From NCBI GenBank assembly GCA_964202905.1, contig CAXNJO010000004.1, positions 224,001-288,000 on the forward strand: 64,000 nucleotides of DNA, read 5' to 3'. Shown piece after piece: positions 49,521 to 57,057 of the stretch. The position numbers were made by a program, and so were the translations under genes. This stretch comes from Polyangiales bacterium (lineage in GTDB: Bacteria; Myxococcota_A; Polyangia; Polyangiales; JADJQN01). Position 1 is the first letter of the stretch. Every line of letters begins with the position of its first letter. The notes beneath the pieces were generated by a model. The model was not told the DNA's origin, made no database searches, and saw only the letters and a program-made list of their open reading frames with translations.

Positions 49521-50345
49521 CTACTCGATCGTGCAGATGGCGCGGGCGCGTTTGATCCGCAGCACGAGGCACTCGTAGACGCGGAAGGGGAAGTCCTGAT
49601 CGCGCTCGCCGAGGTAGGCGACGGTGAGGTCCTCAGTCACGGCGATGTCGAAGTTCTGATCGCCCGTGGAGAGCAGCACCGAGCGGCCCTCGGGGATCGC
49701 GGGTGAGGTGTACACGCCGTCGTCGCAGAGTCGGAGGATCGCGTCGAGTTCCGGCGCGAACTGCCCTTCCCGCTGCTGGACGAGGCGCGCGTAGTCCTTC
49801 GCCGACACGGCGAGCGCGAAGGGCCGGTGGTGGTTGTGCTCGAGCAGGGTCTCGGTCGCTTTCACGACGTCGCGGTAGGCGGTACCGTAGTCGGACCAAT
49901 CCCCACGCTTGACGACGTTGCGGCCGGGCGCGTCGAGCAGGCCGTGGATGCCGAAGCGCGGTTCACCTTGGAAGATCAGCTGATCTTCGCGGTCCGCGAC
50001 GAAGTGCGCGGCGCGCACCGCACGCGAGGCGTCGATCGGCGCGCCGAGCTTTCGCGAGAGCTCGACGTCCCGCCAATGCAGGACGAAATCCTTGTAGAGG
50101 ATGGGGACCCGCACGTACTTCTCGCGCTCGGCCACGATCGGCTCTGGGTCGTGCTTGCCCGTGAGCTCGATCTCCGCCTCGCGATCCGGGCCGTACTCCT
50201 CGAGCGCGATCGACTCGATCCCCGCACCGAGCGGGCCGTAGAGCCCGAGGAAGCGGCGACCGACGAGCGTGCGACGCGCCTCGCGCACGCACTCGTCGAC
50301 GATCAGGGAGAGCTGCGATTCGTTGAGCGGGTTCGCGTTCGTCAT
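49521..50345 (-). CDS. Family 1 encapsulin shell protein (Linocin M18 / EncA-like)
   Basis: NPL..ARRTLVGRRFL..YGPLGAG, VPILYKDFVLHWRD, REDQLIFQG, GDW, STGDQNFDIAV, FRVYECLVLRIK..AICTIE match EncA-type shells; RBS GGAG. Confidence 0.93.
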   Translation of the reverse strand: MTNANPLNESQLSLIVDECVREARRTLVGRRFLGLYGPLGAGIESIALEEYGPDREAEIELTGKHDPEPIVAEREKYVRVPILYKDFVLHWRDVELSRKLGAPIDASRAVRAAHFVADREDQLIFQGEPRFGIHGLLDAPGRNVVKRGDWSDYGTAYRDVVKATETLLEHNHHRPFALAVSAKDYARLVQQREGQFAPELDAILRLCDDGVYTSPAIPEGRSVLLSTGDQNFDIAVTEDLTVAYLGERDQDFPFRVYECLVLRIKRARAICTIE

Positions 50346-50370
50346 CGGTCTCCGGAGCGTGAAAGCGGGA

Positions 50371-50733
50371 CTAGCGGCTGCGCAACGAGCCGACGGTGCG
50401 GCGCGCAGCGGAGGCCTCGGCAGAGGGGGCGGCGATGCCGGGCGCATCGCGCAGCGAGCCCACCGTGAGTCGCGCCGGGTGCGCGCCGCGGCCCGCCGGG
50501 GGAGCGCTCGCGCCCCGAGCCGGACCACGCACCCGGACCCCGGCCTCGGCGGCGATCGCGGCGAGTTTCTCGTCCTCTTCCTCGAGGAGATGGGCGATCA
50601 GGGTCGCGCGCGTCTCGGGCGACATGCCCGGGTCTCGCGCGATCTGCGCGAGGATCGGTGCGTGCTCGGCCTTCAGCGCCTGCATCCCCGAGATGGCGCC
50701 CTCGAGACCGCTCGCACCCGGCTCCGTTCTCAT
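50371..50733 (-). CDS. Putative encapsulin cargo protein with two C-terminal targeting peptides
   Basis: Directly upstream of the shell gene; RLTVGSLR and RRTVGSLR resemble the myxobacterial LTVGSLRR cargo-loading peptide; helical core LIAHLLEEEDEK. Confidence 0.8.
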   Translation of the reverse strand: MRTEPGASGLEGAISGMQALKAEHAPILAQIARDPGMSPETRATLIAHLLEEEDEKLAAIAAEAGVRVRGPARGASAPPAGRGAHPARLTVGSLRDAPGIAAPSAEASAARRTVGSLRSR

Positions 50734-50741
50734 GCGGCGGC

Positions 50742-50818
50742 AGTGTCGTCGGGCCGTCGATCGCCGTCAACTGCACGGCGCTCCACCGCTTGCGGCGCAG
50801 ACACGTGCAGCCCATGTT
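50742..50818. promoter_or_regulatory. Divergent sigma-70-like promoters for the cargo/encapsulin operon and the CDF gene
   Basis: Minus strand TTGACG-N17-GACACT-8nt-ATG (50770 to 50733); plus strand TTGCGG-N17-CATGTT-8nt-GTG (50790 to 50827); inverted repeat CTGCACG (50771-50777) / CGTGCAG (50804-50810). Confidence 0.45.
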
Positions 50819-50826
50819 CGTCGGCG

Positions 50827-51864
50827 GTGAGCGCCCGCGAGACCACGCCCCGAAGCCGGACCGCTGCGAGCCACGACCACGCACTCCACGGCCACGCGGG
50901 TCACGGCCACGCGCATCACGACCACGAGGGCCACGCGCACCACGACCACGCGGGTCACGCGCATGTCGGCCCGGGAACGCCTCGGCGCGCGCTCGCCATC
51001 GCGCTCGGGCTCACGGCCTCGTTCATGGGCGTAGAGGTCGCCGTCGGCGTGTGGTCGGGGAGTCTCTCGCTCCTCGCGGACGCCGGCCACATGCTCAGCG
51101 ACGCGACGGCGCTCGTCGCCTCTCTCGTCGTCGCGCACATCGCCGCGAGACCGCGGTCGCCGCGCAACACCTACGGCTACCGCAGGGCCGAGGTGATCGC
51201 GGCGCTGCTGAACGCGGCCCTGCTCGCCGTCGCGGCAATCGCGATCGTGCGGGAGGCCGCCGAGCGGATCGCGGCCCCGCCGCTCGTGCATGGGCAGGGG
51301 ATGATGGCCACGGCCGCGGGCGGGCTCGTCGTCAATCTCCTCGCGGCCTGGGTGCTCCACCACCAGGGCGGGGGCGGTCTCAACGTGCGGAGCGCGCTCT
51401 TCCACGTGCTCGGCGACGCGCTCGGCTCCGTGGCCGCGATGGCCGCGGGCGCGGTCGTGCTCACGACGGGTTGGCGCCTCGCGGATCCGCTCGCGTCGCT
51501 CGGCATCGCGGTGTTGCTCATCGGGGGCGTGTGGCACCTCGTGCGCGAGGCGACCGGCGTGATCATGGAGGCGGCGCCTCCGCACCTCGACACGCTCGCC
51601 CTCGAGGGCGCGATCCGCGGCACAGCGGGCGTCGAGAGCGTGCACGACCTGCACGTGTGGTCGCTGACGGCGGGCGCGCCGGTGCTCACGGCGCACGTCG
51701 TCCTCACGCACGGCGCGCACGGGACGGACGTGGCGCGCGCGGTCGGCGAGATGCTCCGCGAGCGCTTCGCGATCGCCCACGCCACCATCCAGCCTGAGGC
51801 GCCGGAGGCCGCGCTCGTGTCCCTCCGGCGCAAACCCCCGCGCGAGGGCTCGACGGCCGCGTGA
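50827..51864 (+). CDS. Cation diffusion facilitator (CzcD/ZitB-type Zn/Co/Cd exporter) with His-rich N-terminus
   Basis: HDHALHGHAGHGHAHHDHEGHAHHDHAGHAH; SLSLLADAGHMLSD, TYGYRRAE, NVRSALFHVLGDALGS, VHDLHVW, HATIQPE. Confidence 0.93.
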   Translation: MSARETTPRSRTAASHDHALHGHAGHGHAHHDHEGHAHHDHAGHAHVGPGTPRRALAIALGLTASFMGVEVAVGVWSGSLSLLADAGHMLSDATALVASLVVAHIAARPRSPRNTYGYRRAEVIAALLNAALLAVAAIAIVREAAERIAAPPLVHGQGMMATAAGGLVVNLLAAWVLHHQGGGGLNVRSALFHVLGDALGSVAAMAAGAVVLTTGWRLADPLASLGIAVLLIGGVWHLVREATGVIMEAAPPHLDTLALEGAIRGTAGVESVHDLHVWSLTAGAPVLTAHVVLTHGAHGTDVARAVGEMLRERFAIAHATIQPEAPEAALVSLRRKPPREGSTAA

Positions 51865-53952: not shown

Positions 53953-56900
53953 ATGCGCTACCTCTCGCGGCTATGGATGCCCTTCGCCGCCTTCCTGGCC
54001 GTGGCGATGGCGCTCGGCATCACGTTCGTCTGGCCCCGCCGCAACGGCCTCGACTTCGACATCGACGGCTCCCCGCGGGCCCAGGCGGCGCACGGCGCGC
54101 AGCCTTACGACCTCACCGAGCTTCGCGTGCTCAACGCGGTCCTCATCCACGTGAAGGACCACTACGTCGAGCCCGAGCGCATCAATCCGCGACGGATGCT
54201 GCTCTCGGGTCTGAACGCGATCCAGCGCTCGGTCGGCCCCGTGATGATCGATTACACGGACGGCGCCTCGTCGCTGACGGTGCGTGTGAACAACCAGCGC
54301 CGCGACTTCCGCGTCGACGACGTCCGCGCCCCCTGGGATCTGAGCACGCACTTCCGGCAGATCTTCGCGTTCCTGCAGCAGAATCTCGCGGGCACCGAGG
54401 TCGACCTCCACGACATCGAGTACGCCGCCGTCAACGGCATGCTGCGCACGCTCGATCCGCACTCCGTGCTGCTGACGCCGGAGATCTACGCGGACATGCG
54501 CATGACCACGCGCGGCGAGTTCGGCGGGCTCGGCATCGTCATCAGCGTCCGCGACGGGCAACTCACGATCATCCGGCCGATGCCCGGGACGCCCGCCTCC
54601 GGTGCGGGGCTCGCGCGCGGCGATCGGGTCGTGAAAATCAACGAGGAAGCGACGCTCAACATGCCGCTCAACGAGGCGGTGAGCCGCCTCCGCGGGGCGC
54701 CCGGCTCGCGCGTCGCTGTTTACGTCGTGCGTGAAGGCGCGGGCGGCTGGACCACGCCGCGGCGCTTCGACCTCGTGCGCGCCGTCATCCACATCGAATC
54801 GGTCGAGTCCCGCATGCTCGAGGGCGGCGTCGGCTACCTCAAGATCAAGAGCTTCCAGGGCAACACCTTCGAGGACATGCAGCGCGCGCTCGCGCAGCTC
54901 CACCGGCAGGGCCAGCTCCGCGGCCTCGTCCTCGATCTGCGCGACAACCCGGGCGGCCTGCTCGATCAGGCCGTGCGCATCTCCGACGCGTTCCTCACGC
55001 GCGGCGTCATCGTCACGACCTCGTCGAACGACCGCTCGCAGCGCGAGGTGAAGGAGGCCGAGCCAGCCGGCACGGAGCCCAACTACCCGATGGTCGTCCT
55101 CATCAACGGGGGCTCGGCCTCGGCTTCGGAGGTCGTGGCCGGCGCGCTCAAGGCGCACGACCGCGCGCTCATCGTCGGGCAGCGCAGCTTCGGCAAGGGG
55201 TCCGTGCAGGTCCTCTACGACTACGAGGAAGACGGCGCCGCGCTGAAGCTCACGATCGCGCAGTATCTGACGCCCGGCGACGTCTCGATCCAGGGCGTCG
55301 GCATCACGCCCGACATCGCGATCGACCCGATGACGGTCGACGCGGAGGACATGGACCTCACCGTCGATCAGGGCTACCTGCGCGAGTCCGATCTCCGCTC
55401 GCACCTCACGAATGAGTCCTCGCAGCGCGCGGCGGCGCAGCGAAGCGCGGTCGTGCTCCGCTACTACCTGCCGAAGGAGCAGCGCGAGCAGCTCCGCGAG
55501 GCAGGCCCGGACGACGCCGAGGAGAACCTGCGCGAGGGCGAGTTCCTCACGCGCTTCTCCCGCGATCTGCTCGCGCAGGCGCGTCGGCCGAGCCGCCCGG
55601 AGCTGCTCGCCGACGCGGAGGCGGTGCTCGCCCGCGCGCGGCAGGCCGAGCTCGACAAAGCCATCGCCGAGCTCCAGCGCCTCAGCGTCGACTGGTCCAC
55701 CGGCCCCGACCAGGGCGCGTCCCCCATCGAGGTCGTCGTGTCGACGAGCACCCCGGACAACGTCGGCACCGCCGGCCAGCCCTTCGAGTTGCGCGTCCGC
55801 GTGACCAACCGCGGACAGGCGCCGCTCTATCAGCTCCGCGCGACGACCAAGAGCGACAACCGCCTCTTCGCCGAGCGCGAACTCGTGTTCGGCAAGCTCG
55901 CCCCCGGCCAGTCGCGCGAGTGGTCGACGACGCTCGGCATCTGTGAGACCAAGGACGACCGGCGTCAGTGTCGCCTCCCGTTCGACATCCCGGATCGCGC
56001 CGACGCGATCCGCGTCGAATTCGCAGAGGCCCACGAGCACGCCCCGGTCCCCGCCGAGGTGCGCACGACCGTACGCGCACTCCCGCGGCCGCTCTTCGCC
56101 TACGGTCTCCAGATCGCCGACAACCTGCGCGGAAACGGCGATGGGCGCGTGCAACGCGGCGAGTCCATGACGATGTACTTGCACGTCAAGAACGTCGGTC
56201 AGGGACCGAGCGTCGAAGGACAAGCGAACCTCGGGAACCTGAGCGGCGCGGGGATCCTCCTCCGCGACGGGCGCTTCACCCTCCCCGCGCTCGCGCCCGG
56301 CGCGACGCACGACGTGGCCTTCACCTTCGAGGTCCTGCCAGACTTCGAGGCGGACGAAGCCAAGGTCGAGGTCAGCCTCGCGGACGTCGCGCTCCGCGAG
56401 GGCGTCTCGGAGAAGGTCCTTGTCCCCATCGCGGCGGCGCCCGCGGCGGCGCAAGGCCCCCAGCCACGCCCAGGTCGTGTCCGCGTGCGCGACGGCGCCC
56501 CGCTCCGGGCAACGCCGGCCACCGACGCCTCCCTCCTCGGAGCCGTCCGAGGCGGAGCGCTCGAGCTCGGCGCGCAGGCCGTGCTCGGGGCCTTCACCCG
56601 CGTCGATCTCGGCGGCGGGCGCCCCGCGTGGGTTGCCAGCGCGGACCTCGTCGACGCCGGGAGCGGCGGCCGTTTCATCGAAGACTACGAGCACACGCCC
56701 CCGACGGTGCGCGTCGATCACGGAAGCCAGCTCGTGACCCGCGCGACCGAACTCTCGCTGCGCGGCGGCGCGTCGCACCCCGCGCGCATCCGGGACATGT
56801 ACGTGTTCGTCGGCTCGCGGAAGGTCTTCTTCCTCTCCCATGAAGGCGCGGCGAACCCCCGCGAGATCGCGTTCGACGCGCGCGTCCCGCTCCACGGCGG

Positions 56901-57057
56901 CGCGAACGTCATCACGGTCGTCGTCCGACACGACGACGACGTGATTGGCCGGCGGACCTTCGTCGTACGCCGCGACGGCCCGAACGGCGAGACCCTCGAG
57001 GCCCCGCGCTTCGAGTACGACGAGCTCGGGGACGACGACGGGCTCGAGATGGAGTGA
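53953..57057 (+). CDS. S41 carboxy-terminal processing peptidase, long myxobacterial (MXAN_5808-like) form
   Basis: LDPHS, GEFGGLGI PDZ, LDLRDNPGGLL, SASASEVVAG, FGKGSVQ, GITPDI, followed by Ig/CARDB-like and SH3-like extensions. Confidence 0.92.
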   Translation: MRYLSRLWMPFAAFLAVAMALGITFVWPRRNGLDFDIDGSPRAQAAHGAQPYDLTELRVLNAVLIHVKDHYVEPERINPRRMLLSGLNAIQRSVGPVMIDYTDGASSLTVRVNNQRRDFRVDDVRAPWDLSTHFRQIFAFLQQNLAGTEVDLHDIEYAAVNGMLRTLDPHSVLLTPEIYADMRMTTRGEFGGLGIVISVRDGQLTIIRPMPGTPASGAGLARGDRVVKINEEATLNMPLNEAVSRLRGAPGSRVAVYVVREGAGGWTTPRRFDLVRAVIHIESVESRMLEGGVGYLKIKSFQGNTFEDMQRALAQLHRQGQLRGLVLDLRDNPGGLLDQAVRISDAFLTRGVIVTTSSNDRSQREVKEAEPAGTEPNYPMVVLINGGSASASEVVAGALKAHDRALIVGQRSFGKGSVQVLYDYEEDGAALKLTIAQYLTPGDVSIQGVGITPDIAIDPMTVDAEDMDLTVDQGYLRESDLRSHLTNESSQRAAAQRSAVVLRYYLPKEQREQLREAGPDDAEENLREGEFLTRFSRDLLAQARRPSRPELLADAEAVLARARQAELDKAIAELQRLSVDWSTGPDQGASPIEVVVSTSTPDNVGTAGQPFELRVRVTNRGQAPLYQLRATTKSDNRLFAERELVFGKLAPGQSREWSTTLGICETKDDRRQCRLPFDIPDRADAIRVEFAEAHEHAPVPAEVRTTVRALPRPLFAYGLQIADNLRGNGDGRVQRGESMTMYLHVKNVGQGPSVEGQANLGNLSGAGILLRDGRFTLPALAPGATHDVAFTFEVLPDFEADEAKVEVSLADVALREGVSEKVLVPIAAAPAAAQGPQPRPGRVRVRDGAPLRATPATDASLLGAVRGGALELGAQAVLGAFTRVDLGGGRPAWVASADLVDAGSGGRFIEDYEHTPPTVRVDHGSQLVTRATELSLRGGASHPARIRDMYVFVGSRKVFFLSHEGAANPREIAFDARVPLHGGANVITVVVRHDDDVIGRRTFVVRRDGPNGETLEAPRFEYDELGDDDGLEME

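Follow-up and report, generated by a model that had tools for sequence, protein, structure and literature searches.

Here, we describe a two-gene encapsulin locus in a Polyangiales bacterium and propose that its cargo belongs to a conserved, unnamed encapsulin cargo class, the system itself being of a known kind, a Family 1 encapsulin. The locus lies in a 64,000-nucleotide stretch of contig CAXNJO010000004.1 (GenBank assembly GCA_964202905.1, positions 224,001 to 288,000 of the forward strand), which we call the window and in which all coordinates are counted; the genome that holds it (G000) is 94.5% complete. Open reading frames and profile matches bear out the three-gene layout of an earlier, sequence-only reading of this DNA, namely a shell gene, a 120-residue cargo gene upstream of it and a divergent CDF exporter gene. 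The features are as follows.

49521..50345, minus strand: Family 1 encapsulin shell gene, 274 amino acids (NCBIfam encap_f1, Pfam Linocin_M18, tree clade)
50371..50733, minus strand: cargo gene, 120 amino acids, with a predicted helical hairpin and a disordered tail bearing two targeting peptides
50542..50706, minus strand: conserved hairpin domain of the cargo, residues 10-64 (column counts of 104 sequences, AlphaFold2)
50449..50472, minus strand: targeting peptide 1, RLTVGSLR, cargo residues 88-95 (sequence)
50380..50403, minus strand: targeting peptide 2, RRTVGSLR, cargo residues 111-118 (sequence)
50742..50770, minus strand: sigma-70-type promoter-like site TTGACG-N17-GACACT, 8 nt before the cargo ATG (recurring upstream pattern)
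50827..51864, plus strand: His-rich CDF (ZitB/CzcD-like) exporter gene, a neighbour outside the conserved system (TIGR01297)

By profile match, the shell is a Family 1 encapsulin of the Linocin_M18/encap_f1 family, with the HK97 fold. It scores 228.9 bits against NCBIfam encap_f1 (cut-off 100) and 178 bits against Pfam Linocin_M18 (cut-off 24.3; E 2.7e-52), and its top PDB sequence matches are shells of the Quasibacillus thermotolerans type and Myxococcus xanthus EncA (E about 1e-66 to 1e-65), the Q. thermotolerans shell 6nj8 matching at E 4.9e-65. A scan of G000 at its 94.5% completeness found no second encapsulin.

The cargo gene ends 25 nt before the shell ATG. It encodes the two TVGSLR copies that the sequence-only reading had reported, although the second, described there as terminal, is followed by Ser-Arg and is therefore near-terminal. 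Peptide 1 contains the LTVGSLR peptide that EncB, EncC and EncD carry in the account of PMC11126975, and the cargo peptide fits the Family 1 consensus given in PMC11202242. The pairing of peptide and shell is not a matter of chance, since the window cargo, alone of the 13 peptide matches within 25 residues of a stop in a six-frame scan of G000, adjoins the genome's only encapsulin, and since the arrangement recurs across phyla.

The cargo family and its coupling to the shell

No Pfam or NCBIfam name matched the window cargo (P0001), which, judged by sequence comparison, defines an unnamed family. One protein search gave 23 matches, and a profile of these, run with representatives of 50% identity clusters, yielded 110 cluster representatives at E <= 0.001, of which 99 lie at 1e-10. 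The alignment used here comprises 104 sequences and excludes near-duplicate close matches, P0087, the repeat protein P0052, P0114 and the weak tail P0119-P0128. Across the 104 members Pfam and NCBIfam gave scattered weak matches only, while a search of the ESM Atlas with the cargo returned no usable match and a PHROGs search of the cargos no match. A literature search of full texts, which mostly leaves subscription journals uncovered, found no paper that describes this cargo in its title or the start of its abstract.

Five residues (H24, D34, H48, E52 and E53) are invariant in all 104 cargos, and four of these five are His or Glu. E23 (102/104), G36, M37, R42 and L45 are near-invariant, and E55 is kept in 90. 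By a loose pattern, 53 of the 104 carry two targeting peptides, 36 carry one, 10 carry three and 5 carry none, so that 63 have two or three; the twin peptides, which had been taken as atypical, are thus present as reported, and two is the most frequent number in the family without being constant.

The weak tail of the profile search holds two related groups, a tandem form that has two hairpins but a single peptide (L042-L055; P0121, P0124-P0126, P0128-P0133) and a four-member group with a single hairpin (P0127, P0134-P0136; 93-95 residues). Both repeats of the tandem form match the peptide-free cargo core (hhalign 94% and 88%), its motif reads H14...H38xxxE42...H68...H92xxxE96, and its predicted fold is a four-helix bundle whose linker is short. 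Of 14 metagenome loci, 12 have a shell gene directly after the tandem cargo gene; the remaining two contigs break off just past the cargo. In many tandem cargos the peptide is a variant, WTVGP(L/M)W, and a long linker rich in His and Gly is present; one member of a tandem cluster is labelled Obscuribacterales. Glutaminase genes adjoin the tandem loci L044 and L047, and a table in PMC8346489 labels a Melainabacteria shell near glutaminase as ‘Minor’. The four-member group matches the cargo core at 95% by hhalign.

The hairpin also occurs in a phage protein. In P0114 (328 residues), which matches PHROG 1028 (E 1.8e-34) as a head maturation protease, it lies in the C-terminal part (E 2.8e-12) with H24, H48 and the EE pair intact; this is a single sequence, and a search of viral contigs found no relatives of it.

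Cargo and shell are coupled both ways, whichever of the two genes is used for searching. A cargo homologue lies upstream of the shell in 34 of 34 distinct loci with upstream DNA and is directly adjacent in 32; in the remaining two, in G588 (L141:1772-2533), a closed single-contig genome, and in G633 (L142:795-1502), one gene for an unrelated predicted exported protein stands between them. Loci retrieved via the shell, from records titled Myxococcota, Deltaproteobacteria and Planctomycetota, have the cargo directly upstream in every case with upstream DNA. When 401 genomes of the order were searched with the cargo, 23 gave a match, among them the unpublished G638, and at 20 of 20 examined loci retrieved in this way (17 of them duplicates of earlier loci) the shell is present on the same strand. 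Duplicates (L030, L034, L116), loci with no upstream DNA (L037, L039, L040) and L144 from G638 were dropped before the locus counts. The pair thus recurs in myxobacteria and planctomycetes.

A Pfam scan of 53 genes chosen from the 286 called around these loci found no other generally conserved neighbour of the pair and no conserved metal-specific gene; apart from the dehydrogenase described next, the genes around the pair differ between loci. A short-chain dehydrogenase gene is divergent from the cargo in eight loci (L013, L014, L015, L016, L019, L025, L029 and L031; seven titled Planctomycetota and one unclassified, four of the eight Pfam-scanned), which may be lineage synteny only.

In a tree of 66 shells (a quick maximum-likelihood IQ-TREE run with long-branch warnings, from which IMEF shells are absent), the 31 shells with hairpin cargos and the 12 with tandem cargos form one clade each (Shimodaira-Hasegawa-like approximate likelihood-ratio test, SH-aLRT, 96). 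The two clades are sisters (support 90), and the group nearest to them consists of 11 shells with EncC-like cargos. A plasmid search for shells recovered distant shells only.

The divergent exporter gene

The CDF protein scores 250.9 bits against TIGR01297 (cut-off 82), has a His-rich N-terminus, and has ZitB as its nearest equivalog, scoring under the ZitB cut-off. If it begins at GTG 50827, the gap to the cargo gene is 93 bp, as previously read; the GTG-Ser-Ala start is identical in the orthologue from the same genus (G001). From this arrangement the sequence-only reading had drawn a Zn/Co/Cd compartment co-regulated with metal efflux, a proposal that could appeal to the head-to-head genes, to the His/Glu ligands of the cargo and to an imperfect 19-2-19 inverted repeat (74%) at 50771-50810, and that synteny has already largely refuted, leaving it highly improbable. 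Among the 34 distinct hairpin-cargo loci a CDF gene is adjacent in one, the window itself (one of the first 31 loci, 29 of the other 30 having at least 1 kb of upstream DNA, and none of three further loci), and it is found next to none of the 14 tandem-cargo loci. The G001 orthologue, 71% identical, is followed by the same neighbour as in the window but preceded by an unrelated gene, with no encapsulin beside it; the G002 orthologue precedes the same S41 peptidase as lies downstream in the window, likewise with no encapsulin beside it. Because both keep the downstream neighbours without an encapsulin, we regard the CDF gene as part of a resident gene block whose contact with the encapsulin is incidental, and we reject it as a conserved partner.

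The region upstream of the cargo points the same way. A TTGAC-N16-18-NANNNT pattern, usually with GA(C/G)ACT, precedes 20 of 31 cargo genes, against a mean of 0.16 (maximum 2) in shuffled sequences and 0.36 (maximum 3) in random windows; a generic promoter and terminator scanner found none, the cargo site scoring under its threshold. The site reads as an ordinary conserved sigma-70-type promoter without sign of a conserved metal operator, and the window cargo transcript would be leaderless. MerR-type metal promoters have a longer spacer than the 17 bp seen here, and no palindrome is common to more than three of the 31 upstream regions. With CDF adjacency not conserved, an outcome that the sequence-only reading had itself named as refuting its proposal, and no operator shared, co-regulation with efflux, and with it the Zn/Co/Cd compartment, is unsupported.

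Two side observations concern this region. By eye, the inverted repeat overlaps TTGCGG-N17-CATGTT, 8 nt before the CDF GTG (within 50771-50818). An orthologue of the S41 peptidase gene of the window (53953-57054) is directly divergent from the cargo in G036 (L003, L030), whose shell is the sister of the window shell in the tree, and the encapsulin pair may long have occupied this site.

Predicted fold and relation to known cargos

AlphaFold2 predicts the cargo to be a hairpin of about 55 residues followed by a disordered tail, with helices at residues 10-33 and 39-64, a predicted local distance difference test score (pLDDT) of 91-98 over residues 11-60 and no structure afterwards. A structure search, also advocated in the sequence-only reading, placed the hairpin model among generic hairpins only (best Z 7.1), with EncB 7s5c at rank 41 (Z 6.0). 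Matches to the tandem model, with Z up to 10.6, were generic or designed four-helix bundles, one of them a designed di-iron protein (Z 10.0). The 50 matches listed contain neither a hemerythrin nor a ferritin chain, which excludes neither fold.

Predicted with Fe, two copies of cargo residues 5-68 reached a homodimer score of 0.76 against 0.01 for the best control, with partner pLDDT of at least 80, although one of the three runs scored 0.11; of proteins with solved structures, 20 of 30 pairs and 1 of 23 single chains attain that mark. The contacts (28-46', 21-53', 17-57', 60-60' and 32-31') correspond to a parallel dimer whose two loops lie at the same end, as would be required by the natural short-linker fusions of two hairpins that fold as four-helix bundles. 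By helical wheel angles, H24 and E53 would be buried, and E23, H48, E52 and E55 would face outward. We infer that H24 and E53 of both chains could form a 2-His/2-Glu core centre, as in IMEF, and that E23, H48, E52 and E55 may line an outer face resembling the His57/Glu61/Glu64 metal-entry sites of EncFtn.

How does this cargo compare with the characterised classes? By no profile tested is it a canonical EncFtn, EncB-D, IMEF, DyP or hemerythrin protein, which agrees with the sequence-only reading that it is not a canonical ferritin-like protein: PF22277 (EncFtn/Flp) matches neither the cargo nor any protein in G000, and NCBIfam EncB gives 13 bits (cut-off 210) over the peptide region only. What that reading overlooked is a ferritin-like HxxxEExE motif in the second long helix. 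In the EncFtn motif as set out in PMC11202242, HxxxEE62xEH65, E62 and H65 form the ferroxidase centre with E32, and H57, E61 and E64 are outer metal sites. Cargo residues H48/E52/E53/E55/K56 fall in register with EncFtn H57/E61/E62/E64/H65, so that the first four equivalents are kept while that of H65 is mostly lost: 27 of 104 cargos have His at position 56, and the window protein has Lys. No Tyr occurs among the common residues of cargo columns 29-32, where an equivalent of Tyr39 was sought.

The closest link is to EncC. The sole PDB sequence match of the cargo under E 0.001 is EncC 7s8t (E 7.8e-4, over helix 2 and the peptide), and the peptide-free core matches eight EncC-like proteins at 66% by hhalign (E 5.5e-5, 22 columns; reversed control 0.3%), against 1.0% for 18 classical EncFtn proteins; all reversed controls in these comparisons lie at 0.2-1.3%. 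The cargo thus appears to stand outside every characterised class, yet is probably descended from the EncC type. With the M. xanthus EncA system (EncB and EncC) it shares the shell family, the LTVGSLR peptide, HxxxEExE in helix 2 and a cargo of two helices followed by a disordered tail; it differs from EncB and EncC in its shorter domain, in having no PF22277 match, no conserved Tyr and mostly no ExxH His, and in an invariant helix-1 His that belongs to its own family. The best of the mutually discordant two-copy runs also predict a parallel dimer for it, whereas PMC11202242 describes EncFtn as antiparallel dimers in a decamer, of D5 symmetry. The four-member group keeps the full HxxxEExEH motif together with the helix-1 His, shows weak IMEF and ferritin matches, and possibly represents intermediates between EncFtn and the hairpin cargo.

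The IMEF system of Q. thermotolerans shares a related shell and a TVGSL peptide. PMC11202242 describes its centre as a non-ExxH one, formed at the interface of a parallel dimer from two His and from two Glu that bridge, which is the type of site suggested here for H24 and E53; the IMEF monomer, however, is a four-helix bundle of 192 residues confined to Firmicutes, whereas the window cargo has two helices. IMEF profiles (PF24309, TIGR04536) match the family weakly, in 2 of 104 members (best E 0.015) and in 1 of 104 (E 4e-4).

EncD of M. xanthus, presented in PMC11126975 as a flavin mononucleotide (FMN) ferric reductase, is a helical-hairpin cargo of about 100 residues that bears an LTVGSLR peptide and lacks an ExxH centre, and is like the window cargo in each of these respects. 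It differs in forming an antiparallel dimer; in place of the flavin-binding Tyr/Leu conserved in EncD, the cargo family has no conserved aromatic residue for a flavin, its core matches five EncD-like proteins at 0.5% by hhalign, and the EncD model (NF058680) gives weak whole-protein matches in 5 of 104 members (best E 5.5e-5) and no match in G000. Five genomes of the phylum encode EncD-like proteins (L134-L138) that score under the NCBIfam cut-off, and at least two of these proteins end in a WTVGPL peptide.

A half-hemerythrin, in which H24, H48 and E52 of two copies would together make a di-iron centre for binding or detoxifying O2, NO or peroxide, has to be weighed against these iron-handling cargos. 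The H24...H48xxxE52 pattern of Family 1 hemerythrin cargos is invariant here and doubled in the tandem homologues, and hhalign to 29 hemerythrin-domain proteins (a local PF01814 alignment) gives E 0.009 for the core and 0.007 for the tandem form, slightly better than for EncFtn. The corresponding probabilities are just 4.6% and 5.7%, against 1.3% and 0.2% for the reversed controls, and are non-significant; the cargo is half the size of hemerythrin cargos, PF01814 matches neither it nor G000 and is absent from the 25 of 34 families listed for the 104 members, and the predicted dimer face turns H48 and E52 away from the core. We therefore judge a half-hemerythrin to be unlikely. PMC8346489 gives the known cases of hemerythrin cargos as 42 Actinobacteria and 3 Proteobacteria.

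The same 2021 survey, PMC8346489, leaves 90 Family 1 systems without a cargo assignment, and its table labels at least four Sandaracinaceae shells ‘FLP’. Members of the hairpin-cargo family may be filed there under FLP without comment.

Likely role of the compartment

In light of these comparisons, what might the compartment do? Our preferred reading, in which we place an even measure of confidence, is a two-gene encapsulin system with a probably EncC-derived hairpin cargo that would dimerise, bind iron and likely oxidise it at a remodelled His/Glu site. The shell likely packages the cargo via its two TVGSLR peptides; the cargo probably descends from EncC-type ferritin-like proteins; two hairpins are predicted to pair into a four-helix bundle; and the dimer would handle iron at the remodelled site, while the outer E23/H48/E52/E55 face could draw metal in or act as a further interface. 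That the metal would be iron and the product stored inside the shell follows family precedent only.

Support for this reading comes from the two-way coupling of cargo and shell, the invariance of the His/Glu set, the helix-2 match to EncC and the full motif of the four-member group, and further from the His at position 56 in 27 of 104 cargos, the nearness of the shells to EncC-like shells in the tree, the homodimer score and the tandem fusions. The iron gene content of G000 favours iron when taken with EncC-type ancestry: Pfam Ferritin, Rubrerythrin, Hemerythrin and EncFtn-like have no match in this 94.5% complete genome, whereas the ferritin family PF00210 is present in 36 of 41 genomes of the relatives search. 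G000 also has two Fur-family genes.

Replacement of ferritin was considered as a general role and rejected, since it holds for G000 and G017 but PF00210 is found in 4 of 6 carrier genomes among the relatives and above cut-off in 4 of 5 other carriers. A second encapsulin is present in 4 of 5 carriers and holds a canonical EncFtn in the 3 of 3 checked.

Several points weigh against the preferred reading. Its metal binding and activity are predicted properties, and its canonical ferroxidase centre is not intact, with His65 replaced by Lys in the window and no conserved equivalent of Tyr39. The core lacks profile similarity to classical EncFtn, and the link to EncC spans one helix and a template of low diversity. 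The three dimer runs share as little as 0% of contacts and run 1 scored 0.11; H24 is absent from the named interface residues, and the core was assigned from wheel angles, not coordinates. The shell tree is the quick run with flagged long branches and no IMEF shells, and, with ferritin-family genes in most other carriers and canonical EncFtn in the second encapsulins checked, the system is not just a substitute for ferritin and a simple storage role is disfavoured.

Some of these points suit a different role. The cargo could be a non-catalytic scaffold whose peptides cross-link shell subunits and whose acidic His/Glu surface binds or nucleates a mineral or a non-iron metal (Zn, Mn, Co), independently of the CDF exporter. 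Such a scaffold would account for the loss of the ferroxidase His in most cargos, for two or three peptides in 63 of 104, for coexistence with canonical EncFtn encapsulins and for the same domain in the C-terminal part of the phage head maturation protease P0114, and one tetrahedral ion could fit a single 2-His/2-Glu layer just as well. The strict His/Glu invariance on both faces in 104 sequences would, in contrast, exceed what a pure scaffold needs, the sole sequence and tree links lead to iron-handling cargos, and no metal-specific neighbour is conserved. On balance we consider a scaffold rather unlikely, though better placed than a half-hemerythrin.

A bolder formulation, which we offer tentatively as a possibility short of our preferred reading, is that these proteins are a minimal cargo class with a new metal centre. 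A 55-residue hairpin would form a parallel homodimer around two His and two Glu, with a second His/Glu face, and would exist in single and tandem forms on sister shell clades; it would do a job distinct from that of the coexisting EncFtn, with another metal or another iron chemistry, and would have been acquired by a phage head protease.

The function of an encapsulin is set by its cargo, and the cargo classes of Family 1 are few. Our findings add an unnamed class that has a shell clade of its own and spans about 100 sequence clusters (50% identity); the suggested tie to heavy-metal efflux should be abandoned. The system is small, at two genes, and its invariant ligand set, unlike that of characterised centres, makes it a compact test case for the rebuilding of a ferroxidase-like site. 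It also raises the question of why one cell keeps two different Family 1 compartments.

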